64,000 bases of DNA, taken from the NCBI GenBank assembly GCA_050179755.1, contig JBFXEV010000001.1, positions 489,994 through 553,993 on the forward strand, written 5' to 3'. A program made the translations under genes and the position numbers. This document shows, piece after piece, positions 1-62,565 of this stretch. The stretch is from Candidatus Babeliales bacterium. GTDB taxonomy: Bacteria; Babelota; Babeliae; Babelales; JBFXEV01. Under the pieces are notes generated by a model. That model worked only from the letters and a program-made list of their open reading frames with translations, was not told the DNA's origin and did not search any database. Positions within the stretch are counted from its first letter, which is position 1, and each line of letters starts with the position of its first letter.

Positions 1-645
1 CTTCTCATGTTCAAAAACCATTTCCACCCCTTGGTAATGATCAACTGCATAGTGAAGCGGCGTTAAGCACTGCATAGAGGGCAAATTGGGCAAAGCATTA
101 TGGTCTAATAATAATTTAACCATAGCATAACGAGTCTTTATACAAGGAAACCCTAGCGCAGTTAACAATGCCGTTGCACCCTGTTCTGTATAACAATTAG
201 GATTTGCGCGATGAAATAAAGCAAGCGTAGCATTATTTATTTCACCGTTTTTAAGCGCAGCTAATAATTGACGATCAACCATGCGATCGGTTGATCTTAA
301 ATGTGCCGACGGCGCAGCTGTTAATGATCGCACCAATGTACAAATATCTTCTCGCGTGCGAGGATCATGTATACTATCTATGCCAGCTATAACTTTATAA
401 TGAGTCAATGCAAAATCATCAAAAAATTGCCGGTGCTTGACAATATCTAGTCTATTAGCTTTTACAAGACGCTTACCTTCTTGATTATTTTTACTTTGCT
501 GTGCAGTAAATCTTTGAATGACTTTTAAGTCTTTAAAAAACTGTTCATCAATAATTGTTTGCTCAGAATCTACAAAAAAACGCAACATGCCAATTATAAT
601 GTTAACGTTAAAGAGCACATAACAGAGAAGAACTCTCTTCCACAC
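1..645 (-). CDS. Ankyrin-repeat protein with signal peptide (runs off window start)
   Basis: Hand translation from GTG at 645 after GGAGG RBS: MWKRVLLCYVLFNVNIIIGML...ANPNCYTEQGATALLTAL...MVKLLLDHNALPNLPSMQCLTPLHYAV; open to position 1; not in the ORF track. Confidence 0.8.
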   Translation of the reverse strand, partial: MWKRVLLCYVLFNVNIIIGMLRFFVDSEQTIIDEQFFKDLKVIQRFTAQQSKNNQEGKRLVKANRLDIVKHRQFFDDFALTHYKVIAGIDSIHDPRTREDICTLVRSLTAAPSAHLRSTDRMVDRQLLAALKNGEINNATLALFHRANPNCYTEQGATALLTALGFPCIKTRYAMVKLLLDHNALPNLPSMQCLTPLHYAVDHYQGVEMVFEHEK

Positions 646-671
646 AGCACAACCTCCAGTCCGCTATGCTA

Positions 672-1064
672 TTATTCAGTCACCGTAACCCTTTGCCCTG
701 CACTATGGAGCATATGTAACGCAAAATCAGAAATTAAATAGCCGCCAATAAACATGCTTGTATACGGAGCATTGGCAATACTATCCCGCTTAAAAATCAA
801 AGCCCACAGGGCAAGCGCACTAAAAAAAGGGCAATCAGCTACGGTTTTTAACACACTACTGCCAATGCGCGATAGTAACCCATCGTTATAAACTTTTACT
901 GCAGATTCATAACCAAGTAGTCGTTCAATTTCTACCGATTGCCCTGGCTCAAGCTTTACCTGGCATATTTCCGTATCATCCGTATGCACATTAACAGTTA
1001 CCGTTTCTTCTTGAGCATGCGCTAAGCACATAACGCATAAAAGTAATCCAAATAATTTTTTCAT
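672..1064 (-). CDS. Hypothetical exported/membrane protein
   Basis: Likely start MKKLFGLLLCVMCLAHA (signal peptide) at 1064; two hydrophobic C-terminal segments. Confidence 0.6.
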   Translation of the reverse strand: MKKLFGLLLCVMCLAHAQEETVTVNVHTDDTEICQVKLEPGQSVEIERLLGYESAVKVYNDGLLSRIGSSVLKTVADCPFFSALALWALIFKRDSIANAPYTSMFIGGYLISDFALHMLHSAGQRVTVTE

Positions 1065-1169
1065 GGCCAACGCCCTTTCATTTTTAATTTTAATATACAC
1101 ACGTTCTTTTGATTGAGTATACTAAAGAGAAAAATTGAACACTAATGCCCCAAAAATAAAGGAAAGTAT

Positions 1170-1922
1170 ATGCCAGCACTGCTTATTGTGTGTAATTGGA
1201 AAATGTATTTTTTTTATAAACAAGCGCATACATGGCTAAGCACTCATCAATCAGATCTTGTTCAACTTACCAAGCAAACAAATAAACATGTGATATTGTG
1301 CCCCTCTTATGATGCTCTGGGCGAAATTGCAAAACTCCTCGATGCCAAAACAATTGCGCTCGGCGCGCAAGATTGTGCAGCACACATTAACGGCCCCTAT
1401 ACGGGTCAAGTAAGCGCACAATCGCTTAAAGAACTTGGTTGCTCATATGTTCTCATTGGACACAGTGAAACGCGTGGCGCTCATAAAGGAACCATAGAAG
1501 CTTCTGTACTTAAAGCAACGTGTGCTTTGGAACAAAACTTAACGCCCATTGTGTGCATTGGTGAATCAGAAGAAAAATATAAAGCAGGAACGTCCCTTAA
1601 ATTTATTGAAGAGCAAGTGCGACCCATTCTTGAGCTTTCTAAAAGATATTCAGGCCAACAATTTATTATTGCCTATGAGCCTATTTGGTCGATCGGCACC
1701 AGCATAGTACCAAAAAACGCCTATATAGAAAGCGTGTTTACCTATATTATTAGCCGCGCCAAAAAGATAGGGTTGCAACGTGCACCTTTATTACTTTATG
1801 GTGGCAGTGTTGATGAAGTGAGTGCCCCTACACTCAAACAGGTTGTCCACTTGGGAGGATTTCTTATTGGCAAAGCAAGTACAGATTTTCAAAAATTAAA
1901 AAAGATTGTACAATTAGTATAA
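1170..1922 (+). CDS. tpiA: Triosephosphate isomerase
   Basis: NWKM, GHSE, AYEPIWSIGT, YGGSV motifs; upstream of secG as is common. Confidence 0.95.
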   Translation: MPALLIVCNWKMYFFYKQAHTWLSTHQSDLVQLTKQTNKHVILCPSYDALGEIAKLLDAKTIALGAQDCAAHINGPYTGQVSAQSLKELGCSYVLIGHSETRGAHKGTIEASVLKATCALEQNLTPIVCIGESEEKYKAGTSLKFIEEQVRPILELSKRYSGQQFIIAYEPIWSIGTSIVPKNAYIESVFTYIISRAKKIGLQRAPLLLYGGSVDEVSAPTLKQVVHLGGFLIGKASTDFQKLKKIVQLV

Positions 1923-1941
1923 GTAACAATTATTTATATTC

Positions 1942-2366: not shown

Positions 2367-2367
2367 G

Positions 2368-4188: not shown

Positions 4189-4662
4189 ATGAAAAATATT
4201 ATTACCAAAGCGCTCACGCTTACATTAGCATTACTAACATTAAGCGATATACAAGCGGTAGAAACATTACGGCCAATAGACAAAGCCTTATTGAATGCTG
4301 CAAAAAATGATAAAACTGGCAAATTTGTAATCTTAGCTATTGAAGAAGGTGCTAACGTACATGCGCGTGATGAAGACGGCTACACAGCTATGCATTGGAT
4401 CGCTAGAAATGCCGACATACCTACCTTACTGTATATGTTATCTAAAGTTGATCGAAAAACAGCTTTAAATGATAGAAAGAATAAATTGGGCTTAACACCA
4501 TATGAATTGGCTAAGCTGAGTGGCAATACAAAGTTACTTAACCTAATTGAATTTTATACATTAGTTAAAATCCCTGCGCCAAGTTGTACATATGATAGGC
4601 AAACTGGTGTGGCAAGTTGTTTAGACCACTCAACTGGTGGATCTTACTTAACTATGGGTTAA
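4189..4662 (+). CDS. Secreted ankyrin-repeat protein
   Basis: Signal peptide; GANVHARDEDGYTAMHW and GLTPYELA ankyrin motifs. Confidence 0.85.
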   Translation: MKNIITKALTLTLALLTLSDIQAVETLRPIDKALLNAAKNDKTGKFVILAIEEGANVHARDEDGYTAMHWIARNADIPTLLYMLSKVDRKTALNDRKNKLGLTPYELAKLSGNTKLLNLIEFYTLVKIPAPSCTYDRQTGVASCLDHSTGGSYLTMG

Positions 4663-4673
4663 TTTAAATAAAA

Positions 4674-4708
4674 ACGTAAAGGGTCGCCAAACGTGCGACT
4701 CTTTACGT
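4674..4708. terminator. Strong intergenic hairpin
   Basis: acgtaaagggtcgc-7 nt-gcgactctttacgt 14-bp stem between two ankyrin genes; no U-tract on + strand. Confidence 0.45.
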
Positions 4709-4713
4709 AAATT

Positions 4714-5169
4714 ATGAATATGAAGCAGTTTACTAACAAATTACTTATCATAGCTCTATGGTGCTCTGCAACATATCAAGCGCATGCCGAATACCAAAAA
4801 CAACTAACGCCTCTTGAAGAACGCTTTTTACAAGCTGCCAAAAATGATAACATGCGTGAGCTTAAAGACGCTATTAAAGCCCGAGTTAATGTACTGGTGC
4901 GTGATGGCACGGGGTACCAAGCACTCCATTGGGCCGCTCGCAATGGCAATAATGATGCAATTACCTTACTTGTAGATGAAGGCGCCAACGCAGAAGACGC
5001 TGAAAATAGAGATCATTTAACGCCCGCGCAAGTAGCACACGACATGCACCATAGAGATACAGAAGCTATGCTCACTAAAATTGCAGACGATCAAGCTGCG
5101 CGCCGACGCGTGAAAACACAATATTATATACGCAGCACTGGCAGCATTAAAACAAACCCTCGTGAATAA
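4714..5169 (+). CDS. Secreted ankyrin-repeat protein, paralogue of 4189-4662
   Basis: Signal peptide; DGTGYQALHWAARNGN..LLVDEGAN, HLTPAQVA. Confidence 0.88.
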   Translation: MNMKQFTNKLLIIALWCSATYQAHAEYQKQLTPLEERFLQAAKNDNMRELKDAIKARVNVLVRDGTGYQALHWAARNGNNDAITLLVDEGANAEDAENRDHLTPAQVAHDMHHRDTEAMLTKIADDQAARRRVKTQYYIRSTGSIKTNPRE

Positions 5170-5223: not shown

Positions 5224-5925
5224 ATGGTGTGGTATATCATTTTTTTATGCATCGCAAGCAATGCACAGCAATGCATGGCAATGGAGCACTCTTGCTCGCA
5301 CGATAAAGCCAACATTGCTCAAAAAGAGCATCAAGCTTGCGCCAATGCTCTGGCGCGCAAACCAAAACCAACTAGAACTTTGGCCAAACCAAAAAAACAG
5401 CCTTTTAATGCTTCAGAACAAGATCCCAAAATACGCGTGGTAATTGAAATTTCAAGTATAGCAGACTATCAAAAAGGAGAAGTTGCCAATACTACTGCAA
5501 TCGATTTTTCAAGTAATAACCTTAGCGAGCTACCGCAGTTACATGGTTATACAAAGCTACAAGAAATTGACTGCTCTGGTAATGAATTCCGTATCGTGCC
5601 ACCACCTTTGTTTCAATGCTTGGGGTTACAGCGAATTTTTTTACAGCATAATCTTATAGAAATCATTCCAAGTGCAATACATATGTTCGGTCACCTTACC
5701 GTGCTTAATCTTGCCCATAATTATCTGAGAGAGTTACCAAATGAGCTTAGTAGATTACAAAAACTAAGAGATTTGAATGTCTCGCACAATGCAATAACTT
5801 CAATTCCTGCCTCTATTGCCCGTCTTGCGCAACTATTTCATTTTAATATCAAAAATAATCAGCTTACTCAAACTCTGGTTGACGCACTTAAACAAAAAAT
5901 GCCCAATACTACCATTACATGGTAA
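5224..5925 (+). CDS. Secreted leucine-rich-repeat protein
   Basis: About 6 LxxLxLxxNxLxxLP repeats; signal peptide followed by AME. Confidence 0.9.
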   Translation: MVWYIIFLCIASNAQQCMAMEHSCSHDKANIAQKEHQACANALARKPKPTRTLAKPKKQPFNASEQDPKIRVVIEISSIADYQKGEVANTTAIDFSSNNLSELPQLHGYTKLQEIDCSGNEFRIVPPPLFQCLGLQRIFLQHNLIEIIPSAIHMFGHLTVLNLAHNYLRELPNELSRLQKLRDLNVSHNAITSIPASIARLAQLFHFNIKNNQLTQTLVDALKQKMPNTTITW

Positions 5926-7038: not shown

Positions 7039-8193
7039 ATGAAACATCCATTTTGGTTGATCAATAGTATTTTACTTATTACGCTCTTGCTTGGTGTAAG
7101 CTTGATGCTATTATTTCGTCCAAAAAAACTTGCACTTGAATCATTCGAACCAGAAAAAGAAGAAATAAAACTACCGCAACAAAGTTTACCTAAAATTGAT
7201 CTTGCAAAGATTTATACTAACGACATTTTTAATACCTATAGCGCACCCACAACACCAACGGAACAACAAGCCGCTGAAATTCCTGCCGTGCCACAACCGC
7301 CACGCCCTGAGCCTATTAAACCTGCGGTTAAACCAACACCAAAATTACTCGAACCACTCAAAGTTACGCTTAAAGGGATCATGCTCACTGGCAATGATGC
7401 TACCAATATGGCAGTCATTGAAAATACACAAACAAAGCAATCAAAAAACTATCGCGTTGGTGATAAGATAGAAGACGCTCAACTCATACGCATTATGAAA
7501 AACAAAATAAGCATAGTACGCTCAAATGGCCAACAAGAAACGCTCTATGTTAATAAACGAGATGCACAGCTTGATCAATTAGTGCAGCCGCAGGGTGATT
7601 GGTCAACTATTATCGCCAAAGTGCAAGAAGGTGCCTATACGATTGATCCAAATGCATTCATTATCAAAGTGCGTAACTTGGCGCAATTTATAGACTTGCT
7701 TAATCTTACTACGGTGTATAAATCAGGCAAAAGCATTGGCGTACGCGTTGGCAAAGTGCAAAGCAATGGACTTGCAACAGCGCTTGGGCTCCAGATGGGT
7801 GACATTATCACGCAAGTAAATGAAATGCCTGCCGACACCACAGATAATCGTTATGCAATTTATCAAACACTCACCAAGTTAAAACTAGATGCTACCATTA
7901 AGTTGCACTTACAACGCAATGGCATTGATCAAACAATAAGTTATACACTTAAAGAAATGGACATTTTGGAAGAAGAGCCACAAAAATCTACTATGCAAGA
8001 TGTGGTATATCCTGAAAAAACTATGGCTGATGTGCAAGCAGAGCGGCAACGCATTATGCGCGAACAATATCGCTTTGCGCCAACTGCTCAAGAACTAGAC
8101 AGAGAAAAGAAACGTACTATGCTTGATACCGCCCCCCAATCAACGCCACGTAAGCGCAATGTACTCACCGAGTTGGTGGAATCACCACATTAA
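7039..8193 (+). CDS. gspC: Type II secretion GspC-like protein with PDZ-like domain
   Basis: N-terminal TM, Pro-rich linker, LKGIM..AVIEN..YRVGDKI HR domain, GLQMGDIITQVN PDZ-like; precedes a secretin. Confidence 0.75.
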   Translation: MKHPFWLINSILLITLLLGVSLMLLFRPKKLALESFEPEKEEIKLPQQSLPKIDLAKIYTNDIFNTYSAPTTPTEQQAAEIPAVPQPPRPEPIKPAVKPTPKLLEPLKVTLKGIMLTGNDATNMAVIENTQTKQSKNYRVGDKIEDAQLIRIMKNKISIVRSNGQQETLYVNKRDAQLDQLVQPQGDWSTIIAKVQEGAYTIDPNAFIIKVRNLAQFIDLLNLTTVYKSGKSIGVRVGKVQSNGLATALGLQMGDIITQVNEMPADTTDNRYAIYQTLTKLKLDATIKLHLQRNGIDQTISYTLKEMDILEEEPQKSTMQDVVYPEKTMADVQAERQRIMREQYRFAPTAQELDREKKRTMLDTAPQSTPRKRNVLTELVESPH

Positions 8194-8208
8194 ACGAATG
8201 AGCCAAAC

Positions 8209-10761
8209 ATGAGAACAGAGTTTACCGCTAAATTATACCATATCATACTATGCTCGCTTATTGCCCTCCCGTTGCATGCTGTCATAAAAGAAGAAGCCAC
8301 CGCTGAACAAAAAGTTCCTTTAAAGCGTCAAGGCATCATGGCAAATATGGCTGATCAACAAGATGCAGATATTCCACTTGAAGGCCCTGGCCTTGCAACC
8401 ATAGAAGAGCGCGGACCAGGGCAAGCAAATCGTGTGCAACAATCGGTAGAGGAATTTACCCAGCCACCTGTGCGGCCCGATACTGCCGTGGATGATGAAC
8501 AGAATAAAGTAGAAGTAAATTTTGAAGAAACCGATTTATCAAATATCACCAGCTGGATCTCAAAATTATTTGGTGTTTCGTTTATATCAAACGATGCAAT
8601 TAATCCACCACCAAAGACGGGTGGGCTTATTGGAAACAATAAATTAACCTTTAAATCTCACATACCTCTTACCAAGCGGCAAGTTTGGGATTTATTTGTT
8701 ATCTTCTTGGACCTTTCTGGACTTGCAGTACGTTCATCTTCGATACGATCTAATTTTTATCAAGTAGCCCCCGTCTCGCGCCAGTCGCCAGACCCTATTA
8801 CCAACCAACCATTGCCTTCATTTGTAAACGTCGATTGGCATGCATTGCCTGATAACGATCAGTATGTGCGTTATGTTTACTTTTTACAAAACATGCGCTT
8901 GCAAGCAATCATGGATGTGCTCAATGATTTAAAAAGCAAAAATGCGCAAATAGCTCAATTGCCCTATCTTGATGCATTTATGATCACGGATAAAGCGTAT
9001 AATATTCGTACGCTTATGCAGGTAGTTGAAGAGCTTGATGGTGTAGCATTGCCTGAAGCAATGTCCGTTTTAAAACTAAAAAATGCTGATGCAGAAGAGG
9101 TGGGTCAACTTTACAAATCGCTCACATCTGGCGATCAGCAAGAGCGGCGAATTGCATCATTCTTGGGCCAACGTAACGTGCCTACTAAAAAGTATTTTCC
9201 TGAACATGTAAAAATAATTGTAGAAAAACGCACAAACTCCTTAATTATTTTAGGCGACCGTAAAAGTATTCGCAAAATAGAAAATTTTATTTCAAATTAC
9301 GTTGATACAGAATTAAAACAACCCTATTCACCGCTCTATGTCTATGACTTGCAATATACTAATGCAAAAGATATGGCACAAATACTTGATGAAGTAGTAA
9401 ACAGCTATAATAAAGATTCGGTGGCTCGTGAATATGGCAGCGTACGCCGGGGCGAAAAATATTTACAACCGATGGTGTTTGAGCCAGAGCAAGAAGGTAA
9501 TCGCTTGCTCATTAAAGGTGAAAAGGAAGATTGGCTTATGGTGCGCCGTATCATAGAACAACTTGACGTACCGCAACCACAAATTGCTATTGAAGTGCTG
9601 GTGGTCAACGTAACAGGTGATGATAATAAAGAGCTTGGCGTACAAATCAGAAATAAAACACCCGAGCAAATTAACCCTAATATTGATTGGCAATCTTCTG
9701 GTTTGCCTGATGGCGTTGGCAACTTTAATCAACCAGTAGTGCGACCTGCAGGAAGCGTTAATCCTGGTAGCATTGCAGCAGACTTAATCACGCTTGCACA
9801 ATCACAAACAGTAGGTTCAACACTTGTTTCTATTGGAACAGCCGCAACCGGTGGCGTGTGGGCATTATTAAAAATGCTTCAAACACACACGCGTACCGAA
9901 ATTTTATCAAACCCTTACTTGGTAACTACCAATAATTACGAAGCACTCATTTCACTTGGTGAAACACGACGTGTAGTATCATCTACCGTTGTTTCTGGTA
10001 GCACGAGTGAAAGCTCGCAAACTGATAAAACAGCGGCACTCACCGTGCGCGTAAAACCACAAATTAATCGTGAAGGCATCATTAATCTTGATATATTCTT
10101 TGAACTAAGTGCATTTACCGCTGCTGCAAACAGCTCAGAAGCTGCAAACACTGTTGAACATAAATCGCGCACCAATGCCAACATTGCCGATGGTGAAGTG
10201 CTTGCCTTTGGTGGTTTTATGCGTAGTGAAGTGGATGAATCTGTTGCCAAAACGCCGTTGCTTGGTGATGTGCCCGTGCTTGGTTGGTTCTTTAAAAACA
10301 AAACCAAACGAAAAACAGTTAATAATGTTATGGTGTTTATTTCACCGCACATTATTGAGCCTCGTCTGCAAGGGGGTTTAAGCTCGTATTCAGAACATAA
10401 AGTAAATACGGCGCGAGAAACATTATGCTATGGTGAACGAGCAAACCAAAAGAGAGACCCTATCCATAGATGGTTCTTTAAAGATAACGTTCGCTTTGAA
10501 CAAGATAAAATTGATAATTTTATTTTAGAAAAAGAAGAAGCTGGTATTATTTCTGCAAAAGAAATAATTGAGGCCGGCGAATCTGAGCCATTGCTCACCA
10601 ATATTCCCGATGAAACGGCACCACCTTCTATTACACCTGATGCGCCAAGACCAGTACTTGCCCAGAATAAAGAACCGCGCACGCGTAAGCAAAAAAAGAA
10701 ATCTATTTTTACTACGTTTGAACCAGATAAAACCACTAAACCTACGGGAGTAACTGCATGA
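8209..10761 (+). CDS. gspD: Secretin, GspD-like (copy 1)
   Basis: N-domains (RTNSLIILG), IEQLDVPQPQIAIEV, KTPLLGDVPVLGWFFK..VMVFISPHII secretin motif. Confidence 0.9.
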   Translation: MRTEFTAKLYHIILCSLIALPLHAVIKEEATAEQKVPLKRQGIMANMADQQDADIPLEGPGLATIEERGPGQANRVQQSVEEFTQPPVRPDTAVDDEQNKVEVNFEETDLSNITSWISKLFGVSFISNDAINPPPKTGGLIGNNKLTFKSHIPLTKRQVWDLFVIFLDLSGLAVRSSSIRSNFYQVAPVSRQSPDPITNQPLPSFVNVDWHALPDNDQYVRYVYFLQNMRLQAIMDVLNDLKSKNAQIAQLPYLDAFMITDKAYNIRTLMQVVEELDGVALPEAMSVLKLKNADAEEVGQLYKSLTSGDQQERRIASFLGQRNVPTKKYFPEHVKIIVEKRTNSLIILGDRKSIRKIENFISNYVDTELKQPYSPLYVYDLQYTNAKDMAQILDEVVNSYNKDSVAREYGSVRRGEKYLQPMVFEPEQEGNRLLIKGEKEDWLMVRRIIEQLDVPQPQIAIEVLVVNVTGDDNKELGVQIRNKTPEQINPNIDWQSSGLPDGVGNFNQPVVRPAGSVNPGSIAADLITLAQSQTVGSTLVSIGTAATGGVWALLKMLQTHTRTEILSNPYLVTTNNYEALISLGETRRVVSSTVVSGSTSESSQTDKTAALTVRVKPQINREGIINLDIFFELSAFTAAANSSEAANTVEHKSRTNANIADGEVLAFGGFMRSEVDESVAKTPLLGDVPVLGWFFKNKTKRKTVNNVMVFISPHIIEPRLQGGLSSYSEHKVNTARETLCYGERANQKRDPIHRWFFKDNVRFEQDKIDNFILEKEEAGIISAKEIIEAGESEPLLTNIPDETAPPSITPDAPRPVLAQNKEPRTRKQKKKSIFTTFEPDKTTKPTGVTA

Positions 10762-12386
10762 TCAAAGATCTCTTTATTCCCCAAAAAATAGATGGGTATT
10801 ATATTTTATCCCAAGACATCCTTGGCGTAGTTATAAATAAAACGCACGTGCGTGCAGCGCTGGTTACTGCACAGGCAAAAACATTAACCATTAAAGATTT
10901 TTTTGAAGAACCGCTCAGTACAAACAATGAACTTTCTTATCAAGAACGCGTTGCTAATGCTCTTACTGCTCTACGTGCAAAAGTAGGTACAAACGTTACT
11001 ATACGATCTTCGCTTTCAAGTGCTCAGGTCACCTTTAAACAATTAAAGCTGCCATTTGCTGATCCTGAAAAAATAAAAATGATCTTACCTTTTGAAATTG
11101 CACCCCAACTGCCTTTTGCAATCGAAAACGCCATTATTGATTTTATAGTAGTAAGCGTGGACGAAGAGCGCAAAGAAAGCACTGTCATGGTTGCAGCAAT
11201 TTTAAAAGAACATGTAGCACAGCATATGGCGCTCTTTGCAGCAGCACAAATTGAACCAGATCAGATTACTATTGATCTTTTTGATCTTTATGGCTTATAT
11301 CTTATGGTTCCTGCATATCGAGCACGCAAAGGCGTAACCGTTTTACTTGAACTACAAGCAAGCTCCACACGCCTGATGTACCTGATTGATAACAAACTTG
11401 AGCGTATCAGAACTATTGGCCAGGGCATTGCCCATCTTGCCAAAATTGTAGGGCAAGAATTAAATATTGAAAATGGCGATGCGCTAGAACAGGTTTTGCG
11501 CTTTGGCACCGGGTCTCATGCCCAAAGCAATTATACAACTGCCATGCATCAGGCTGTAGGTTCTTTATGGCAAGCAGTACAGTTTACGCTCAGCTCATTT
11601 GCCGATCAAACAGGCGCTGCACGACCTATTGACACCATTTTACTCGTGGGAGCGTTTGCAACTCTGCCCGGCATTGCAGAATATATCACCGAGCGTAGTG
11701 GCATACCCTGCATGCCATTTGACATACAACTGTTGTTTGAAAATCCACATATAATACAAGGCACAAAAGCAATAACGCCCGATCAAATTGCAAGCTTAAG
11801 CACAGCGCTGCCAAAACCAACCACTGAAAATTTGAACATGCTGCAAGGTGAATTTGCGCCGCAAACCACCAGTTTGTTTGCCAAACAAATAATTTTACTT
11901 GCGGCATTACTATTGCTTTTACTTGGCGGATTACTTGGCATTAGTATATGGCAAACAAGCGCATTACGCTCACAAGAACGCAGAGCAAGCAAAGAAGCTC
12001 TTATTTATTTGCAAGAACTGGCACTCGTCGACGAAGACGTAATGAATTTAACACAAGCAGTAGAAGATGCGAAACTGAAACTCAATAAGCAAGAAGATCA
12101 ATGGTTCCCGTTTTCGCGCCAAGCACGTACCTCACCGCTTAATGTGTTGCAAGCTTTAAGTGCTGCTATGAATCGCGAAAGCCTTGGCCTGCTATTAAAG
12201 CGCCTCGTGATTGCCGAAGATCATGTGACAATTGAAGGTTCAGTAAAAAACTGGGAAGCTCTCACTACACTTCAAAACGAACTTGAAAAATCAAAATTAT
12301 TTGCCTATATACCAAAAGAAGAATTTCAAGATTTTTCCACCTTTAATGTAAAATTGTTATTAAAAAAGAAAAAGGGCGCACTATGA
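10758..12386 (+). CDS. gspL: GspL/PilM-like assembly platform protein
   Basis: Actin-like cytoplasmic domain (LKLPF..LPFEI..LPFAIENAIIDF; ILLVGAFATLPGI), one TM, PilN-like periplasmic end; ATGA-coupled to gspD. Confidence 0.72.
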   Translation: MIKDLFIPQKIDGYYILSQDILGVVINKTHVRAALVTAQAKTLTIKDFFEEPLSTNNELSYQERVANALTALRAKVGTNVTIRSSLSSAQVTFKQLKLPFADPEKIKMILPFEIAPQLPFAIENAIIDFIVVSVDEERKESTVMVAAILKEHVAQHMALFAAAQIEPDQITIDLFDLYGLYLMVPAYRARKGVTVLLELQASSTRLMYLIDNKLERIRTIGQGIAHLAKIVGQELNIENGDALEQVLRFGTGSHAQSNYTTAMHQAVGSLWQAVQFTLSSFADQTGAARPIDTILLVGAFATLPGIAEYITERSGIPCMPFDIQLLFENPHIIQGTKAITPDQIASLSTALPKPTTENLNMLQGEFAPQTTSLFAKQIILLAALLLLLLGGLLGISIWQTSALRSQERRASKEALIYLQELALVDEDVMNLTQAVEDAKLKLNKQEDQWFPFSRQARTSPLNVLQALSAAMNRESLGLLLKRLVIAEDHVTIEGSVKNWEALTTLQNELEKSKLFAYIPKEEFQDFSTFNVKLLLKKKKGAL

Positions 12387-12958
12387 AAATATTCGAGCCT
12401 TTAGAGCAGCGTATTGCGCAACTTGATGCCACCACGTTCCGTAATTATCTTATTGCTTTTTTTGCAGTAATTACGCTCATTATAGGGCTTATCTTATGGC
12501 GCTATTATGCTTCGGTACGGTCGCTCCATAAAAATATACGGCGCATTAATGAAGAGCGTGAAGAAGTAAAAGAAATAACCATACGCAGTGAACGGGTGAA
12601 AGGACAACAACGTGTTGTAGAGACTCTTATTAATAAAGATCCTAATTTCAAGATTCTTGGTTATTTTGATAGAGTGCTTGCACAGCATAACTTGATGAAC
12701 AACCTAGTGCGCAGGCCTGATACACGACCAACTGACCTTGATACGGGGCATACTGAAGTTACACTCTTTGCAAGTTTAACTAACTTAAACATGGAATCTA
12801 TTGCTAAACTTCTGGACACCTTAGAGCGTAATGAACGCATAAACACAAAAGAAATTGAAATAACCAAACCTCTTTCTGGGCGCACGGTTAACTTGAGCCT
12901 TACTATTGCAACGCTTGAGCCTGCAAGCCAAGCTGCCGCAGAAACTTCGGAGGAATAA
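12383..12958 (+). CDS. gspM: GspM/PilO-like protein
   Basis: Single TM, coiled coil, ferredoxin-like C-terminus; coupled to gspL. Confidence 0.65.
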   Translation: MKIFEPLEQRIAQLDATTFRNYLIAFFAVITLIIGLILWRYYASVRSLHKNIRRINEEREEVKEITIRSERVKGQQRVVETLINKDPNFKILGYFDRVLAQHNLMNNLVRRPDTRPTDLDTGHTEVTLFASLTNLNMESIAKLLDTLERNERINTKEIEITKPLSGRTVNLSLTIATLEPASQAAAETSEE

Positions 12959-12962
12959 TACT

Positions 12963-15497
12963 ATGAACTACATTTCACGCTTCTGTATACTGCTTTTTAG
13001 TTTCTTTTTTTTAGTACCGCGCACATGCGCAGTCGTCCAAGAAGATGCGACCAACACCACGGTAACTGATCGCGTTGCAAAGAAAGAAAAGGATCTTGAT
13101 CTTAATGCGGAATTTATTCGCGTAAATTATACTGATAAACCGGTCTCAGAAGCAGTTAATGAAGTGGCAGCTCTTCTTGGTATTAATATTATGATGCCGC
13201 AAGATGGCAAGGGGCTTGATAAAATATTTTATGAATCAAAACTAACGTATCACTTGCCTGAAAAGATCTCGCTTAAAGAACTCTGGGAATTATTGCTCGT
13301 CTCGCTCCATACCTTAGGTTATATGACACACCAACAAGGCGATTTGCTTGCAATAACTCTGTATCCTAATGCAAAAGACGCTGCGCGTCAGCCGCTCACA
13401 CTTTATCATGATGTGCCGCCAAGCGATTTGCCTAATACTAATCAGATTATTAGATATATTTACCATTTGCGCAATCTAAGTTTGGATATCAGCAAAGATG
13501 GTATTAAAAACATTCTTGAAGGCGTGCTTTCAAAAAACCCTAGCTATCAATTTCTTACGCAAACTAATGCGATTGTGATCACCGATCGTGCTGCTAATAT
13601 TAAAAATGCTATGACTATTATTGCAGAACTTGATGAAGGTGGCTTACGTGATGCGATTGAAGTAATCCCACTCTATTATACGTCTGCAGCATTAGTAGAT
13701 GATTTATTTAACAAACAATTATTTCTTGATCAATCAAAAAAAGGTGCAAGTTCAAAACCAGAGGAAAAACAAATACCTTATTTTCCTCAAAACACTAAAG
13801 TTGCCAAACTAGAACGAAGCAACTCTATTGTTATCATGGGCACCACGCGCTCAATTGATATTGTAAAAGACTTTATTGTTAAATACATTGACCGACCGCT
13901 TGAAACTGGTGATTCAATGCTCCATGTCTATGATTTACAATATTTACGAGCAACAGATTTTGCAAAAGTATTACAAAATATTGTTAAAGGCAGCCAAAAA
14001 CAACAAACAAAAACAGCAGAAGCGCAAGGGCCACAACAATATTTTGAAGATGTGGTAATTATTGCAGAAATTTCTACCAAGGAAGCAGCGCTTACGCCTG
14101 AAACGCAAATTACACAAGTTATTAAAGATGCAGCATCTAGCCAAAAAGATGCCACCATTCAAATTGGTGGTAATAGACTTATTATTGCTGCTCGCAAAAA
14201 TGACTGGGTGCGTATCAAGAAATTAATTGATGAACTTGATAAACCGCAATTGCAAGTGGCTATAGAAGTTCTTATTCTTGATTTAACCGTGGACCACACT
14301 ATGTTTTTGGGAGGTCAAACGCGTAATAAATCAGGATTTAATAACAGTACGTCAGAAGCTATTAACTGGCAATCTGCGCAACTTGCTCAACCAGTTCTTA
14401 AACGCGATGCTAATGGCAACTTGCTTCCTGATGCTCTTATGGCAAATTTATTACAACTGGTTTCCACCACCACCGGATCGGCGATTAATATTGCATCCAA
14501 CTCAGAGCCTGGCTCGTTTATTATATCATTTAAAGATAAAGATAATCTTGGCGTATGGAGCATTCTCCAAATGTTAAACACGTTCTTTAAGACTAACATT
14601 CTTGCGCAGCCATTTTTAGTACTGCAAAATCACAAGCCTGGCTGGGTGTTTACGCAAGAAAATAGATATTTGCAATCAGAAACACAAGGTGGTACTGGTC
14701 AGATTGCTCGTGTAAACTTTGAAGACGTGAGTGCTGGTATTACGCTTGATGTGTTACCACATATTAGTGAAACTGGCAACGTGAATATGCAAATTATTAT
14801 TCAAATAGGTAGATTCCTTACCGCAGCCGGTACCAATAGCCCAAATAACCGCTCAGATCGCGTGATAAGAACTAATGCCAACGTGGGCAATGGTGAAGTG
14901 CTCGTGCTTGGCGGCCTTACGCGTGATGAAGAAGATGTAACTATTACCGAATCACCACTTTTAGGGCAAGTACCCGTGCTTGGATGGTTCTTTAAATCAA
15001 AGCGTAAACAAAAAGTTAAAAACCATCTTATGGTGTTAATTAGCCCTACCATTGTAAAACCATACGTAGAAGGCGGCATGGACGTATTTACTGCGGGTAA
15101 AATGAGTGACGCGCGCGACTCTATTACCGAAGATCTGGCCTTTATCAATAAACGCGATCCTATTACACGATGGTTCTTTAAACCAAATCTTGATTGCCCG
15201 TATCAGGGTCTTGATGATTATCTTGATCAATCATATTATGATGAAGATGTAACGCCAGAAACAGAACTGGGTGCAAGCGCGTTAGAAGCGCCATCCAAAA
15301 TTCTTAAATCAGTAGCAGAACGCTCAAGAACAATTGATTTTGATGCGCCAAATAGTGCACCGCTTGCAACAAACAGCGTGGCCAAACCGGTAACTCAAGC
15401 ACAACCTAGAGAGAATCAACTTAAACAATTGATGCAAAACGAAGATAATCCATTACTCGTCAAGCAACGTAAAGACCAAGCGGTCCTCAATACGTAA
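12963..15497 (+). CDS. gspD: Secretin, GspD-like (copy 2)
   Basis: ATG 12963 after GGAGG; signal peptide; IDELDKPQLQVAIEV, SPLLGQVPVLGWFFK..LMVLISPTIV. Confidence 0.9.
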   Translation: MNYISRFCILLFSFFFLVPRTCAVVQEDATNTTVTDRVAKKEKDLDLNAEFIRVNYTDKPVSEAVNEVAALLGINIMMPQDGKGLDKIFYESKLTYHLPEKISLKELWELLLVSLHTLGYMTHQQGDLLAITLYPNAKDAARQPLTLYHDVPPSDLPNTNQIIRYIYHLRNLSLDISKDGIKNILEGVLSKNPSYQFLTQTNAIVITDRAANIKNAMTIIAELDEGGLRDAIEVIPLYYTSAALVDDLFNKQLFLDQSKKGASSKPEEKQIPYFPQNTKVAKLERSNSIVIMGTTRSIDIVKDFIVKYIDRPLETGDSMLHVYDLQYLRATDFAKVLQNIVKGSQKQQTKTAEAQGPQQYFEDVVIIAEISTKEAALTPETQITQVIKDAASSQKDATIQIGGNRLIIAARKNDWVRIKKLIDELDKPQLQVAIEVLILDLTVDHTMFLGGQTRNKSGFNNSTSEAINWQSAQLAQPVLKRDANGNLLPDALMANLLQLVSTTTGSAINIASNSEPGSFIISFKDKDNLGVWSILQMLNTFFKTNILAQPFLVLQNHKPGWVFTQENRYLQSETQGGTGQIARVNFEDVSAGITLDVLPHISETGNVNMQIIIQIGRFLTAAGTNSPNNRSDRVIRTNANVGNGEVLVLGGLTRDEEDVTITESPLLGQVPVLGWFFKSKRKQKVKNHLMVLISPTIVKPYVEGGMDVFTAGKMSDARDSITEDLAFINKRDPITRWFFKPNLDCPYQGLDDYLDQSYYDEDVTPETELGASALEAPSKILKSVAERSRTIDFDAPNSAPLATNSVAKPVTQAQPRENQLKQLMQNEDNPLLVKQRKDQAVLNT

Positions 15498-50066: not shown

Positions 50067-50954
50067 ATGATAGTAAAATATTTATTGATACTAAGCAGCT
50101 TGTTGTTAAGTGTACAGCTTGATGCCATGCAAGCGCCAGAACAACCATTGCGTATAATGACGTTTAATGTGCGTAGAGCTGGCAAAGAAAGCGCCGACAA
50201 CATGCAAAAAAGTTGGACGAACCGCAAACCGCTTGTTGTTGCAGCTCTTAAAGCGTTGCAGCCTGATATATTTGGTTTGCAAGAACCAACCATTGAACAA
50301 ATTCAAGATATAGAAAATGGCCTTGGTGCGGAGTATGCATGGGTTGGTAAAGGCCGCGGTAAAGAATGGTGGGGAAAATCAGAAGATGAATATAACCCAC
50401 TCTTTTATAAAAACAAACGATTAGAACTTTTAGATTCTGGCACGTTTGTGCTTAATCCATCAGGCGCTTTAAATTGGAGATTTCTATGGAGCCCTAGAAC
50501 CGTTGGCTTGCTCACGCGCATTTCCACCTGGGGCAAATTTAAAGACAGGTTGAATGGCCAAGAATTTTATGTATACAACACACATCTTGATCATAAGTTT
50601 GCAGCAGCGCAAGTGCATGGCATGCAAGCAATTTGCACCAAGATTGGTGAATGTACTGATAAGTTACCGGTAATTTTAATGGGTGATTTTAATACTGAAT
50701 TAACGCCGGCCTTGCTCGAGGGTGAGCTCAAAGATTTTGCCAATACTAAAGCTCTTGCGCAAAATCGAGTTGGCCCAGATCAAACGCGTACGGGGTGGGA
50801 TTTTAAAGAGCTTAAGGACATTGATCATATTTTAGTGAGTAAGCAAGCTCCGGTGGTGGTCAAAGAGCATCGTGTGGTGCAAGAGGAAAGCCGTGAGCGT
50901 ATGCCCAGTGATCATAGGCCAGTGCTTGTTGATCTTCTGTTTATAAAAAAATAA
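50067..50954 (+). CDS. Secreted endonuclease/exonuclease/phosphatase family protein
   Basis: Signal peptide; MTFNVR, PDIFGLQE, NTHLDH, MGDFN, IDHI, SDHRPV. Confidence 0.92.
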   Translation: MIVKYLLILSSLLLSVQLDAMQAPEQPLRIMTFNVRRAGKESADNMQKSWTNRKPLVVAALKALQPDIFGLQEPTIEQIQDIENGLGAEYAWVGKGRGKEWWGKSEDEYNPLFYKNKRLELLDSGTFVLNPSGALNWRFLWSPRTVGLLTRISTWGKFKDRLNGQEFYVYNTHLDHKFAAAQVHGMQAICTKIGECTDKLPVILMGDFNTELTPALLEGELKDFANTKALAQNRVGPDQTRTGWDFKELKDIDHILVSKQAPVVVKEHRVVQEESRERMPSDHRPVLVDLLFIKK

Positions 50955-51709: not shown

Positions 51710-52780
51710 TTAGAATGTCATATTAAATGCAACGTACGGGCCAGTAAGTGCAAAGTTGCTTACATTATTGCGGAACGTTCTTGCAAACACACCCACAGAC
51801 GCTACCTCTGCATTAACATTTGACACTTCACTGCCCACATCTATTTGCTGTAAGGCGTTAAAGTATACGCGTGCCTCATAACCAACTTCTAAGCGAGCCG
51901 TATAAGTGCACCAGAAGCGAGCCTCATAAGCGGCACCGATTCTTTGTTCAAACACAGGTACAACAATAGTCATTTTGTCAGTTATCACTGTTTGTAAGTT
52001 AGGATAGGTTATCGGCCCAATGGGTGGCGCTGGTTGCACAGGAGATACGGAGCTAAACAAAGTATCATTTTTTCGTTTACCTATAAGAATCGCTGCTGCG
52101 AGTTTGCCAGAAAGACTTAAGCCACAAAATATATCATAGTCAAAGCAAGCGCCGAATTCAGGACCGGCACCTTTAAAACTTATGGGTGCAATTATGGAGC
52201 GCGTAGTGTTGCCATTAGTGCTTGAAAAGAAGCTGGTTGTTGTTTGTTTAAGGGAGGTAAAGTTTACACCACCAAAAAAGTGAGTTTCTAAGTTGCCAAA
52301 CTCAACAAATTGCGCAACGTTTACATGTACTGTGTTAAAATTGAATTTTGTTCGTCCTGTTGAATTTTGATAAGGTGTTGCTTCTGGTCCAATTTCAAAA
52401 AAGGGCCCTATCATGTCTGTAGGGGCAGGTGCAGTGTGAGAATTTTCTGATGTAGAATTAAAATGCTCCCAATTGATGCCTAAGCTTCTACAATCATTAA
52501 AAAGGCTTGAGCGCACGCCCAGGTCAAAGCCAAAATGATATGTAGGATGTATGTCATAAATTGTCCAACGTGGCGAAGGTGCTGGTAGCGTGGTAGCCTG
52601 TGCTGCATAATGCAAGTTGCTCGTGCTCGGCTTAAGAATCAATGCTCTAAATTGAACAGCAAACGTATAGGGAATGCTGCTTACAGAAACATTGCCACAT
52701 GGCCTACAGTCATCATAAGCACGTGCTGTGAGGGCAGGACAAACGGCGAAGGCTATTATATAATAGAGACATTTTTTCAT
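51710..52780 (-). CDS. Lpg1974/MOMP-like outer-membrane porin
   Basis: Signal peptide; LILKP...LHYA, P.YHFGF.LG, F.GAGP.FG, LEVGY, LTGPYVAFNMTF terminal Phe. Confidence 0.75.
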   Translation of the reverse strand: MKKCLYYIIAFAVCPALTARAYDDCRPCGNVSVSSIPYTFAVQFRALILKPSTSNLHYAAQATTLPAPSPRWTIYDIHPTYHFGFDLGVRSSLFNDCRSLGINWEHFNSTSENSHTAPAPTDMIGPFFEIGPEATPYQNSTGRTKFNFNTVHVNVAQFVEFGNLETHFFGGVNFTSLKQTTTSFFSSTNGNTTRSIIAPISFKGAGPEFGACFDYDIFCGLSLSGKLAAAILIGKRKNDTLFSSVSPVQPAPPIGPITYPNLQTVITDKMTIVVPVFEQRIGAAYEARFWCTYTARLEVGYEARVYFNALQQIDVGSEVSNVNAEVASVGVFARTFRNNVSNFALTGPYVAFNMTF

Positions 52781-56954: not shown

Positions 56955-56957
56955 TAA

Positions 56958-56986: not shown

Positions 56987-57028
56987 AGTTATAGAGAAAT
57001 TGTTAATTTAACTTATTAAGGAGGTTTC

Positions 57029-57628
57029 ATGAAAACCAATATATCAATATTTATAGTTTTCTCTGCTCTAATTTTTACTCATTCCTCAATCGGTATGATT
57101 CTGCTGGAAAAAAAAGTCAAAATACGTAATTCTGATTTTGGAATGGGCAAACCATATGAAGAAAAAAAACGAAAGTTTAAACGTGAGTTTGTAGAAGCAG
57201 TTAATGATGGAAACCTACTCAAGGTTCTACATGCAAAATGCAAACTCGCAGCATGTTATGATAAAGATGATTATCAACGTGCACAAGTAGACAACAGAAG
57301 AAAGATTTTACTTAATAAAGCTGCTGCTTTCTCGAGTGTTGCCGCTGCAGCTACGCTTGCGGGTTTTGCTGTAGTGAAGCCCAGAATATGGCCAATTCTT
57401 CAATCAAGTATAACAATAGCGAGTTGTGCGGGTGCTGCGTATTATGCGAATAAAGTACATAAAATAACGCCAAAGAATGCTTTTGATCCCGAGAAAAAAT
57501 GGTTGGACAACGAATTAAAATTATTAAAAACAGCTCCCGTTCAAGCTTTTTTTGCACAACGTGAGACGGAACGTAACAAAGAGCTTATTCAATTACTTAA
57601 AGAAAAACAAACAACAAAGCATGCTTAA
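57029..57628 (+). CDS. Secreted/membrane hypothetical protein
   Basis: Strong promoter and RBS; signal peptide ending SIG-MI; two Ala-rich hydrophobic helices. Confidence 0.7.
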   Translation: MKTNISIFIVFSALIFTHSSIGMILLEKKVKIRNSDFGMGKPYEEKKRKFKREFVEAVNDGNLLKVLHAKCKLAACYDKDDYQRAQVDNRRKILLNKAAAFSSVAAAATLAGFAVVKPRIWPILQSSITIASCAGAAYYANKVHKITPKNAFDPEKKWLDNELKLLKTAPVQAFFAQRETERNKELIQLLKEKQTTKHA

Positions 57629-57668
57629 GAACAATATGGCTATCAAATAAATATGAAATTCAAATAAG

Positions 57669-57710
57669 AAAACCCGTTCAAGATCATTATGTATCATTTG
57701 AGCGGGTTTT
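57669..57710. terminator. Bidirectional terminator
   Basis: aaaacccgttcaa...ttgagcgggtttt between convergent genes. Confidence 0.65.
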
Positions 57711-57712
57711 TA

Positions 57713-59509: not shown

Positions 59510-59576
59510 GTGCTACCTTTTATGTAATTTCTTTCTTGGAATTACTGTAGCATAAATGACTTTATTGATTCAAGGG

Positions 59577-60932: not shown

Positions 60933-61447
60933 GAGCGTAATTGCTCTTCAATAAGAGCAAGTGCTTTGCCAATCATAGCATCAATAGCATCTTGTTTTTC
61001 AGTAAATGGCTTGAGTACATAATCAGGCACTTGCTCGCGCTCAGCTGGTCGCCCTATGCCCACGCGAATTCTGCCAAAATCTTCTCCTCCATGCGTAATA
61101 ATTGAGCGTAAACCATTATGCCCCTTTGCACTACCACCCAGGCGATAGTTTACGCTGCCAAAAGGTTTTTCAAGTTCGTCATGTACCACTAAAATATCAG
61201 GTTGTTTAATACCTTTTTTATGTAAATAAGGCATTACTTTGCCTGAGTCATTCATAAAGGTCGTTGGTTTTATAAGAATGATAGGCATATTATTAATTTG
61301 AACGATACATTCATCAAAAAGATCTTTTGATGACCAACGGCCATTATATTGATTGGCCAATGCATCAACTACTTGAAAACCAATGTTATGGCGTGTTGCA
61401 TAAAATTTAGGGCCGGGGTTACCCAGCCCTATGATTGCTTTGATCAT
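60929..61447 (-). CDS. pth: Peptidyl-tRNA hydrolase
   Basis: GLGNPG..TRHNIGF, KP.TFMN.SG, HDEL, GHNGLRS, RVGIGRP. Confidence 0.96.
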   Translation of the reverse strand: MIKAIIGLGNPGPKFYATRHNIGFQVVDALANQYNGRWSSKDLFDECIVQINNMPIILIKPTTFMNDSGKVMPYLHKKGIKQPDILVVHDELEKPFGSVNYRLGGSAKGHNGLRSIITHGGEDFGRIRVGIGRPAEREQVPDYVLKPFTEKQDAIDAMIGKALALIEEQLRS

Positions 61448-61455
61448 TGAATAAA

Positions 61456-62067
61456 TTATGATTTTGCAGGTGTTGCTGGCTTTGCAGCAGGTTTTACCGC
61501 TGGTTTATAATTGCTATTAAGCTCGTCAACTATCATTTGTGTGATATCGATGCGGTCTGCAACAAATATGGTGCTACCAGCAAGCACAACGTCAATGCCA
61601 AGATTCTTGGCGATTTTTTGCGTGGTAGTTTCAATTTTCTTGAGCATATCCATTTGTGCCATTTGAGCGCGTTGCTGAGGAATTTCTTGCGCCGCTTGTT
61701 GTTCAATCATAATTTCATTTTTAAGTGACAATAGCTTCTTTTGTCTTTTTTCGCGAGCTTCACCACTTAATACGTTTGCGCCAGCACCACTTAATTCTGA
61801 TTCAATTTTTTGTTTTTCAGATTCCATAGCCTGAATGTTTGCTATACGCTTTTCCATGTCAGCTTTAATTGATTGTTGAAGATCAGCGCCTTCTTTTGAT
61901 TTATCAAATACAGCATAGATATCTACCACTGCAATTTTTACATTAGTAAAGTCTTTTTTAGAAGTCGCAGCACTTGTTGCGGGTTTAGGTGTATCTACAG
62001 CCATTGCCGGGCACGTGGCAACAGTAACAAGTGATAATGCCGTTATTGAATAGAGAAGTTTTTTCAT
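61456..62067 (-). CDS. skp: OmpH/Skp periplasmic chaperone
   Basis: Signal peptide; KIAVVD, coiled coil, DITQMIVDELN. Confidence 0.85.
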   Translation of the reverse strand: MKKLLYSITALSLVTVATCPAMAVDTPKPATSAATSKKDFTNVKIAVVDIYAVFDKSKEGADLQQSIKADMEKRIANIQAMESEKQKIESELSGAGANVLSGEAREKRQKKLLSLKNEIMIEQQAAQEIPQQRAQMAQMDMLKKIETTTQKIAKNLGIDVVLAGSTIFVADRIDITQMIVDELNSNYKPAVKPAAKPATPAKS

Positions 62068-62151
62068 AAAAGTCCTTTGAGAATATTATTGTATAGATTT
62101 ATTGTAACTCAAAGGGTTATTTCGTCAATTTTTGGTTCACTCATTGTGCTA

Positions 62152-62565
62152 TTAGTTAGATCGCTTTAGAAATGACCTACCTTTATCTACAGCATTCAGG
62201 GGAGGTTTTGGTTGACAAACTTTAGTTCGGCTGCTTACTTTTTGCTCCTTTTCATATTCCGTAATTTTGCCTTTTAAAAAGTTAACAACGGCAAGTTGAG
62301 GCATTACGGAAGAAAGAGTAAGTGCTTCATTGCCTGGTTGCAGTTGATAAGAATCGGTGCAATATTGGCCAGTTTTTGTTTTCTTTACACAGGTTTGAAA
62401 AACCGTTGCTTGCAAGTGCCGTTTTTGCGCGAGAGCAATAATGTTTTTTTCAGATTCATACACTTGAATCGTTCCATATTCCGGATGCTCAATGTGCATC
62501 ATGCCGAAAGCGGTGGGCAAACTTATAATGTGCGTGTATAGTATTATTAATAATTGTTTTTTCAT
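62152..62565 (-). CDS. Secreted hypothetical protein
   Basis: Signal peptide ending AFG-MM. Confidence 0.6.
   Translation of the reverse strand: MKKQLLIILYTHIISLPTAFGMMHIEHPEYGTIQVYESEKNIIALAQKRHLQATVFQTCVKKTKTGQYCTDSYQLQPGNEALTLSSVMPQLAVVNFLKGKITEYEKEQKVSSRTKVCQPKPPLNAVDKGRSFLKRSN

Follow-up and report, generated by a model that had tools for sequence, protein, structure and literature searches.

The 64,000-nucleotide stretch of DNA analysed here (the window) lies on contig JBFXEV010000001.1 of a Candidatus Babeliales bacterium (assembly GCA_050179755.1, positions 489,994 to 553,993), and our subject is a methionine (Met) that stands directly after the predicted signal peptide, at position +1 counted from the cut, in a number of the exported proteins it encodes. 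An earlier note on the window had listed seven such proteins, unrelated to one another. The observation is real and was understated: the seven window cases are part of a genome-wide rule. The source genome, referred to as G000, is a single contig of 1,525,295 bases with 39% G+C, for which a simple codon-usage caller of open reading frames (ORFs), keeping the longest ORF per gene, gave 1,441 genes; these gene calls, like the signal-peptide calls behind all leader counts below, come from home-made heuristics and not from SignalP.

The N-termini of all seven listed genes read as the note had written them. Cut sites were scored with a weight matrix trained only on the 214 non-Met sites of G000, which had never seen a Met at +1, and the claim that Met follows the cut directly held for five genes, was a tie in the sixth and ambiguous in the seventh. 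The five with the best matrix site right before the Met (cuts are marked ↓) are the following. The ankyrin-repeat gene at 1..645 (minus strand, 5′ part, Ank_2 match) has a GTG start at 643-645 with GGAGG upstream and a 19-residue leader ending in IIIG↓ML, its Met codon lying at 586-588. The WD40 beta-propeller at 31170..32576 (minus strand, eight repeats) has a 22-residue leader ending in VFG↓ME (Met codon 32508-32510), and the endonuclease/exonuclease/phosphatase-fold (EEP) protein at 50067..50954 (plus strand, Exo_endo_phos match) a 20-residue leader ending in LDA↓MQ (Met codon 50127-50129). The remaining two are orphan exported proteins with no Pfam family: one at 57029..57628 (plus strand), with AAGGAGG ahead of the first ATG and a 22-residue leader ending in SIG↓MI (Met codon 57095-57097), and one at 62152..62565 (minus strand), whose 21-residue leader ends in AFG↓MM (Met codon 62500-62502) with a score of 4.7, the top of the seven, and whose orthologue in the same-genus genome G185 reads SMS↓MI. 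The tie concerns the orphan exported protein at 18596..19330 (minus strand, no Pfam family), where SLG↓MM (Met codon 19283-19285) and ACG↓MD (19262-19264) score equally and both sites are followed by Met; this protein has a homologue in just one other of 261 Dependentiae genomes, namely G185, at 38% identity. In the leucine-rich repeat (LRR) protein at 5224..5925 (plus strand, LRR_8 match), which has a strong AAGGAG ahead of its first ATG, two Mets (codons 5275-5277 and 5281-5283) lie in the sequence QQC↓MA↓ME, and the best matrix site, SNA↓QQCMAME, falls three residues ahead of the first of them, which would leave the Mets at +4 and +6. A further gene with the feature was absent from the list: a 680-residue orphan at 62590..64000 (minus strand, 3′ part) whose N-terminus, LFC↓MD, lies just past the window end and whose G185 orthologue reads LFG↓MD.

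The window otherwise encodes housekeeping genes plus ankyrin, LRR and WD40 proteins and orphans. A cluster resembling type II secretion systems (T2SS) and type IV pili occupies 7039..15497 (plus strand) and consists, by Pfam, of a GspC-like gene with a PDZ domain, a first secretin, a PilM/GspL-like gene, a small protein and a second secretin. As had been stated, neither secretin (LHA↓VI and TCA↓VV) carries Met at +1, and nor does the barrel at 21946..24090 (minus strand), a 714-residue putative outer-membrane protein with the classical leader AIA↓GE (VFA↓GE in its G185 orthologue). The same is true of the Legionella_OMP-family outer-membrane protein at 51710..52780 (minus strand, ARA↓YD). The OmpH/Skp chaperone at 61456..62067 (minus strand) has the leader PAMA↓VD, with a Met inside the c-region, and is falsely scored as a Met case by the loose pattern described below; its G185 orthologue reads VCA↓KA. 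Two small ankyrin proteins at 4189..5169 (plus strand; genes starting at 4189 and 4714) have the leaders IQA↓VE and AHA↓EY without Met, so that the contrast between proteins with and without it is statistical, not absolute. Finally, a check for lipoboxes picked out the ankyrin protein at 19469..20083 (minus strand, Ank_2 match). Its leader ends in LAGC, which resembles a lipobox, and Met-Glu comes next; the protein is probably a lipoprotein in which Met stands at +2, after the lipid-modified Cys, and thus not a clean case.

A genome-wide Met rule and the proteins that carry it

Among the 784 permissively called leaders of G000, with cut sites set by the -3/-1 rule and position +1 left unscored, Met is the commonest +1 residue: it occurs in 187, followed by Leu in 87, with Gln in 39, against a Met content of 1.9% in mature sequence. 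The share of leaders with +1 Met climbs from 13% to 40% as the leader score increases. The signal is also seen without any model of the cut site. About half of the called genes (716 of 1,441) open with an uncharged hydrophobic stretch, and in 150 of these 716 Met stands right before the first charged residue after the core, compared with a proteome-wide Met content of 2.2%. When leaders were defined by charge and core only, Met density peaked 15-16 residues past the start of the hydrophobic core, with 52 and 67 counts versus about 8-10 further downstream. A looser pattern gave 258 genes with Met directly after the leader (hereafter Met-class), which is 18% of the 1,441, or about one in six; we put the size of the class at roughly 190-260 genes. 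They are found all along the chromosome, with at least six in every 80-kb bin. In E. coli K-12, by comparison, 150 kb yielded one +1 Met in 17 leaders, the sole case being a mis-sited FhuA, and the looser scan gave 1 of 11; seven loci from other phyla, found by an enolase search and totalling 105 kb, gave 1 of 17 by the same looser scan.

The motif is (A/G/S/C)↓Met-(D/E/Q/N). In its fuller form the consensus has A/L/V/I at -3, Y/F/L/H/Q at -2, A, G, S and C in falling order of frequency at -1 and Met at +1, and the residue after Met is D in 26%, E in 19%, Q in 10%, K in 7% and N in 6%. At the level of DNA, GCN or GGN is the usual codon at -1 and GAN the usual one at +2. This gives the internal ATG a Kozak-like context (G at -3 in 164 of 246 cases and at +4 in 127 of 246), which we regard as a side effect of the amino-acid motif. 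Degenerate DNA patterns (hydrophobic NTN codons followed by GCN-ATG-GAN) were dropped as a means of whole-genome counting, since on G000 they gave a signal no higher than that of control codons. A search for an upstream DNA motif common to Met-class genes returned no 6- to 8-mer that survives multiple-test correction (best p 2e-4 in 510 tests).

The high share of exported proteins is familiar from a relative: for Chromulinavorax, signal peptides are given for 44% of coding sequences and 78% of ankyrin proteins in the relevant part of Deeg et al. (2019, PMC6561590), and the hydrophobic-start share of G000 (716 of 1,441) matches the former figure. The passages of that paper that deal with signal peptides leave methionine unmentioned.

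As the earlier note had proposed, the Met marks a particular class of proteins. A Pfam scan of exported proteins covered half the genome (400-1,200 kb) and took in 237 of them, another 13 being lost at locus borders. The 125 Met-class proteins comprised 39 ankyrin, WD40, LRR or TPR proteins, 74 without a family and 12 of some other family, compared with 3, 53 and 56, respectively, of the 112 non-Met exported proteins; for repeat versus other families the odds ratio is 61 (Fisher p 1e-15). The 56 non-Met family proteins include BamA, OmpA, a Legionella-type outer-membrane protein, DegP, M23 peptidases, amidases, SpoIID, thioredoxins, M16 peptidases and many enzymes, together with some membrane proteins and false leaders such as those of DNA polymerase I and MutS. 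Met-class proteins account for 12 of the 68 exported proteins with a non-repeat Pfam family. The Met mark is thus on fast-evolving repeat proteins and orphans, and hardly ever on members of conserved envelope and enzyme families.

Paralogy does not account for these numbers. In an all-against-all BLAST comparison of the mature parts, the 258 Met-class proteins fell into 169 pure clusters and 9 mixed ones, 154 of the proteins being singletons; the large ankyrin cluster holds 48 Met and 9 non-Met members and the WD40 cluster 16 and 0. The rule is spread over about 170 unrelated families and is not a paralogue effect. Outside the window, a tandem array of five WD40 genes (positions 403832-412712 of the G000 contig) has near-identical signal peptides, with mature N-termini that alternate between MDPTSP... 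and MESQFQ..., which suggests recombination or gene conversion at the junction of leader and mature part; G185 has a similar WD40 array with a leader of its own.

Some normally cytoplasmic enzymes also have signal-peptide-like N-termini, without Met. In the window these are a PEBP (45973-46560), a GNAT acetyltransferase (46566-47201), a HIT hydrolase (51031-51597) and a CYTH domain protein (55524-56342), and elsewhere in G000 GAPDH, SurE, adenosine deaminase and glycosyltransferases have signal-peptide-like N-termini too. Separately, positions 36000-40000 of the window have 33% G+C, versus about 40% for the rest, and hold several orphans as well as a 586-residue exported protein with a C-terminal Ntox35 toxin domain (36610-38370); this stretch may be an acquired islet.

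Among the Babeliales lineages sampled, some show the rule strongly and others lack it. For this comparison we used 80-160 kb from each of 19 further genomes, belonging to ten other families, plus 400 kb of G185, which is in the same family as G000 (f1), and counted A, G, S or C followed by Met at the end of leaders defined blind to the motif; the samples are small and related genomes are not independent. Strong representation was found in family f1 (G000 160 of 541, G185 66 of 168), in f3 (G113 11 of 31, G005 8 of 31, G018 4 of 18, G072 9 of 43) and in f2 (G001 6 of 24). Four genomes (G019, G096, G075 and G110) are intermediate, at 12-14%, and eight show the rule weakly or not at all: G027 (5 of 67), G040 (5 of 66), G114 (3 of 43), G106 (1 of 25), G039 (1 of 11), G008 (0 of 48), G010 (0 of 17) and G024 (0 of 15). 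No 80-kb bin of G000 is as Met-poor as these eight, the difference being significant for seven of them, with G039 untested. Two possible causes of this pattern were rejected. The 40 other Babeliales genomes searched have between one and three signal peptidase I genes, a number that does not go with the rule: G001 has a single copy and the rule, G010 two copies and no rule. The presence of a T2SS-like machine does not track it either: a GspC-like gene was found in 119 of 121 Dependentiae genomes, rule-free lineages among them, and the link to this machine that the earlier note had drawn is therefore not borne out. A related-locus search with the GspC-like protein as query found no relative.

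Predicted processing site, start codon and conservation

Several features place the Met at a predicted signal peptidase I site, as had been supposed from the seven genes. The matrix trained without Met ranked the site right before it first in 134 of the 258 Met-class genes and among the top two in 180. In leaders defined blind to the motif, the residue before Met is A, S, G, C or T in 191 of 276, -3 is A, L, S, V, T or I, and -2 is bulky. The leaders have the parts that our detectors require, namely a positive n-region, a hydrophobic core (7-15 residues) and a polar c-region, with some 18-30 residues overall; their median length is 21 residues (interquartile range 19-24), and residue 2 is K in 85 of 258. 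G000 has two full-length signal peptidase I (Peptidase_S26) genes, at 1044179-1044904 and 1506819-1507550 of the contig, and SecG is encoded in the window. Together these points argue for a classical Sec/signal peptidase I signal peptide, with Met as the predicted first residue of the processed protein. Three other signal types were considered and rejected. A lipoprotein signal (signal peptidase II) would call for Cys, which precedes Met in 29 of 258 leaders, with a lipobox-like context ([LVI][ASTVI][GAS]C) in just 5 of those 29, the window gene at 19469..20083 among them. The hydrophobic segment lies before the cut, unlike that of a type IV prepilin leader, and Glu at +5 is found in 13 of 258 Met-class proteins versus 11 of 214 non-Met ones. 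Of the 258 leaders, 3 have the RRx-hydrophobic-hydrophobic motif of Tat signals. Predictors of signal peptides whose training set was model bacteria seldom meet Met at +1 and may misplace such sites.

Could the Met instead be the true start codon? The evidence, in agreement with the earlier note, says that it is not. Of 161 Met-class genes, 107 have a Shine-Dalgarno (SD)-like motif of four bases or more ahead of the leader start, and 10 have one ahead of the Met; the corresponding figures are 240 of 465 for the starts of leaderless genes and 58 of 445 for random internal ATGs. Residue 2 of SD-backed real starts in G000 is typically K, A or S, with D in 1 of 119 and E in 6 of 119 (D/E 6%), but after the +1 Met there is D in 67 of 258 and E in 49 of 258 (D/E 45%). 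In public gene calls, four of five window genes, the orphans at 18596..19330, 57029 and 62152 included, have the long form with the leader, and none has the form started at the Met; the WD40 gene appears there in neither of the forms tried.

The same observations bear on two other explanations. The first is that the pattern is due to chance or to ORFs extended upstream of true ATG starts, a concern raised by our use of longest-ORF calls and home-made predictors. Against it stand an enrichment of more than 10-fold on three independent measures, the low control values (1/17, 1/11 and 1/17), the SD motifs that precede the leader start, the conservation of the leaders in G185 orthologues and the public preference for the long form. 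As far as computation allows, this explanation is already refuted, and we leave it next to no weight. The second is that the ATG serves as an additional, internal start, used on a leaderless transcript or independently of an SD sequence, so that a leaderless cytoplasmic isoform is made beside the exported one. Such dual initiation would agree with the codon always being ATG and being conserved, but SD-like motifs before the Met are rarer than before random internal ATGs, a -10-like box is not enriched upstream of it relative to non-Met genes (47 of 258 versus 27 of 214), the residues at +2 are unlike those of real starts, and it is hard to see what purpose about 200 cytoplasmic isoforms of ankyrin, WD40 and orphan proteins would serve. 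We regard dual initiation as very improbable. Window positions 55000-64000 are covered by three sequencing runs, all of them DNA and none RNA.

The conservation of the Met was followed in 400 kb of one relative, G185, where Met is found at +1 in 41 of 121 leaders and is followed by D or E in 32 of the 41. From 223 reciprocal best hits we used 37 pairs with a Met-class gene in G000 and 40 non-Met pairs. Identity is below 45% in 26 of the 37 Met-class pairs compared with 6 of the 40 non-Met pairs (p 8e-7), the other 11 Met-class pairs being less diverged. In the 26 diverged pairs the Met is identical in 15 and the -1 residue in 12, while each remaining position between -8 and +8 is identical in 4-10 pairs (26% when pooled; binomial p 7e-4 for Met). 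Met is not kept in conserved enzymes of periplasmic type, as in the M15 and S41 peptidases of G000 and G185, and among the orthologues of the EEP protein in 22 other genomes it is kept only in the closest, that of G072, the rest having sites of the classical A↓Q or G↓D type. The Met is thus favoured in the effector-like class without being obligatory: these comparisons show that selection keeps it in this class, where it is the best-conserved N-terminal position.

A different account of the same data is that the Met is a relic of gene birth. Young or horizontally transferred genes would once have started at this ATG and later acquired a signal peptide as their 5′ ends grew into AT-rich upstream DNA, leaving the Met as a fossil with little or no function. 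The fast evolution and lineage restriction of the Met-class (26/37 versus 6/40 below 45% identity), the limitation of orphans to the genus and the loss of Met in part of the orthologues would all suit such an origin. However, a fossil would not be expected to be the most conserved N-terminal position (15/26 versus 26% elsewhere), nor to sit exactly at the -3/-1 site instead of being scattered around it; the residue that follows is D or E in 45%, compared with 6% at residue 2 of real starts, and other lineages that are also rich in leader-bearing ankyrin genes have no rule. We consider a relic improbable.

Possible functions of the Met-first end

The reading that we favour, with a probability of roughly 35-40%, is that the Met-class proteins are host-delivered effectors selected for a host-like, stable mature N-terminus. 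The phylum Dependentiae, to which G000 belongs, is made up of protist parasites, is widespread and has hardly been brought into culture. In G000 we found no VirB4, FHIPEP or VipB, the markers searched for type IV, type III and type VI secretion systems, respectively, whereas it has two T2SSE ATPases and two secretins, which leaves signal-peptide-dependent export as the evident route for host-directed proteins. This route agrees with the signal-peptide shares given for Chromulinavorax in the relevant part of Deeg et al. (2019, PMC6561590). The Met-class effectors would work in the host cytosol, and selection would act on the mature N-terminus because that end decides the fate of a protein there.

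By the degron and acetyltransferase rules for the stability of such ends, an N-terminus of Met followed by D, E, N or Q would escape trimming by methionine aminopeptidase, would be neither an Arg/N-degron nor a Met-hydrophobic degron, and would resemble a native eukaryotic N-terminus of the type acetylated by NatB. Resident envelope proteins would never meet the host machinery and would keep arbitrary +1 residues. The composition of the two classes is in line with this proposal. NatB-type residues (D/E/N/Q) follow the Met in 156 of 258 Met-class proteins (60%), versus 27% at +2 of non-Met proteins, while hydrophobic residues (11% versus 26%) and small ones (14% versus 39%) are depleted, which supports the earlier note as far as the NatB type goes. 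Among non-Met proteins the +1 residue would be destabilising by the eukaryotic Arg/N-degron rule in 132 of 214.

A number of points weigh against this reading. Eukaryotic N-terminal acetyltransferases such as NatB act mainly on nascent chains, and an acidic +2 residue is favoured after bacterial signal peptides generally. A, S, T, G and V are also stabilising, so that avoidance of degrons alone cannot explain why Met is used exclusively. Since the host machinery is universal, the absence of the rule from whole Babeliales families is unexpected; the rule is weak or missing in several lineages (0 of 48, 0 of 17 and 0 of 15 leaders in G008, G010 and G024), and in rule-poor G040, where we inspected 12 ankyrin ORFs by eye, eight signal-peptide-like leaders run into T, A, S or V followed by E or Q, and none into Met. 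Within the genus, the Met is lost in 11 of the 26 diverged pairs that keep the leader. The predictors are heuristic, and about half of the 12 family-bearing Met-class cases look false, among them OmpH, TspO, transporters and ATP synthase c. Lastly, cleavage, secretion, delivery and acetylation of the Met-class proteins are all predicted steps.

The main rival, which we judge unlikely though deserving more weight than the others, is that the Met-acidic end is a sorting tag. A component of the bacterium would read it and part released cargo from residents of the periplasm and outer membrane, the cargo then leaving through the secretin machine, in vesicles or by another translocon. Bacteroidetes surface lipoproteins, with an acidic export signal behind their lipid-modified Cys, and malaria parasites, with their processed PEXEL N-terminus, offer analogues. 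The Met-acidic end is the only feature common to about 170 unrelated families, the split between classes is strict, Sec plus the secretin machine is the only secretion route detected, and the patchiness across lineages is more easily squared with a lineage-specific reader in the bacterium than with a host factor that is universal. Yet we found no candidate reader, and neither the GspC-like gene, present in rule-free genomes as well, nor the copy number of signal peptidase I behaves as a reader should. The same loss of Met in diverged orthologues that keep the leader counts against a tag, many enzymes that are likely to be secreted lack the Met, and known T2SS cargo is recognised in the folded state, without a linear N-terminal motif. 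In a bolder form of this proposal, which we find unlikely, the Met-acidic end would be a bacterial host-targeting signal of the PEXEL kind, with a lineage-specific reader or translocon moving some 200 unrelated proteins from the periplasm into the protist host. The entire set of effectors of these uncultured parasites would in that case be set apart by a single short motif.

The selection could also lie on the envelope side, the +1 Met being chosen for resistance to aminopeptidases, for a modification of the N-terminal Met or for local signal peptidase I kinetics. There is a precedent for a lineage-specific +1 residue in the Q-rule of Bacteroidetes, in which, according to the sections of Bochtler et al. 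(2018, PMC5837995) consulted, substrates of signal peptidase I have Gln at +1 that is cyclised to pyroglutamate, and the distribution of the Met rule is likewise lineage-specific. Those sections describe the Q-rule as general to most signal peptidase I substrates and explicitly as no sorting signal, whereas in G000 the resident periplasmic and outer-membrane proteins are without Met. Signal peptidase I copy number again fails to track the rule, and no modifying enzyme was identified, although no search was made for a Met-acting counterpart of glutaminyl cyclase. An origin in envelope chemistry therefore seems to us improbable, to much the same degree as a relic. Returning to the favoured reading, a host-like mature N-terminus on delivered proteins, the Met-first mark may flag the parasite's effector set: a mark of two residues on about 18% of genes separates fast-evolving, eukaryote-like proteins from resident envelope proteins and, if this holds, would allow candidate effectors to be listed from sequence alone.

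Comparison with known N-terminal signals

The leaders are, in sum, classical Sec signals with a +1 Met rule that is both lineage-specific and cargo-class-specific. No description of a Met rule was found in the literature searched on Dependentiae/Babeliales signal peptides and on bacterial effectors in relation to NatB or N-degrons. The leader architecture, the small residues at -1 and -3 and the bulky one at -2 are those of classical Sec/signal peptidase I substrates, from which the proteins differ in the +1 Met, which is rare in the controls.

Native NatB substrates offer a parallel in that 60% of the Met-class would start with Met-D/E/N/Q; they are made on host ribosomes, however, whereas the Met-class ends would arise by proteolysis in the bacterium. 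The host-targeting motifs of eukaryotic pathogens (Plasmodium PEXEL, oomycete RxLR and the Y/F/WxC of powdery mildews) are similar in being short and lying near the mature N-terminus of many unrelated, fast-evolving secreted proteins. The processed PEXEL N-terminus is xE/Q/D and is acetylated, and thus has an acidic or amide residue at position 2 as in Met-D/E/N/Q. Unlike PEXEL, RxLR and lipoprotein signals, which belong to eukaryotes or to lipoproteins, the Met rule implies no protease besides signal peptidase I.

The closest comparison in kind that we can draw is with the Q-rule. Like it, as far as the consulted sections of Bochtler et al. (2018, PMC5837995) describe it, the Met rule consists of a lineage-specific, over-represented +1 residue after an otherwise classical Sec signal peptide, and it takes statistics over the whole genome to see it. 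The residue itself differs, being Met and not Gln (187 versus 39 of 784 leaders). Whereas the Q-rule covers most signal peptidase I substrates, the Met rule is confined to effector-like proteins, and whereas the former is phylum-wide and tied to glutaminyl cyclase, the latter is patchy within one order. If it holds, the Met rule would be the second case, after the Q-rule, of a +1 residue that carries lineage-specific information, and the first that is specific to a class of cargo.

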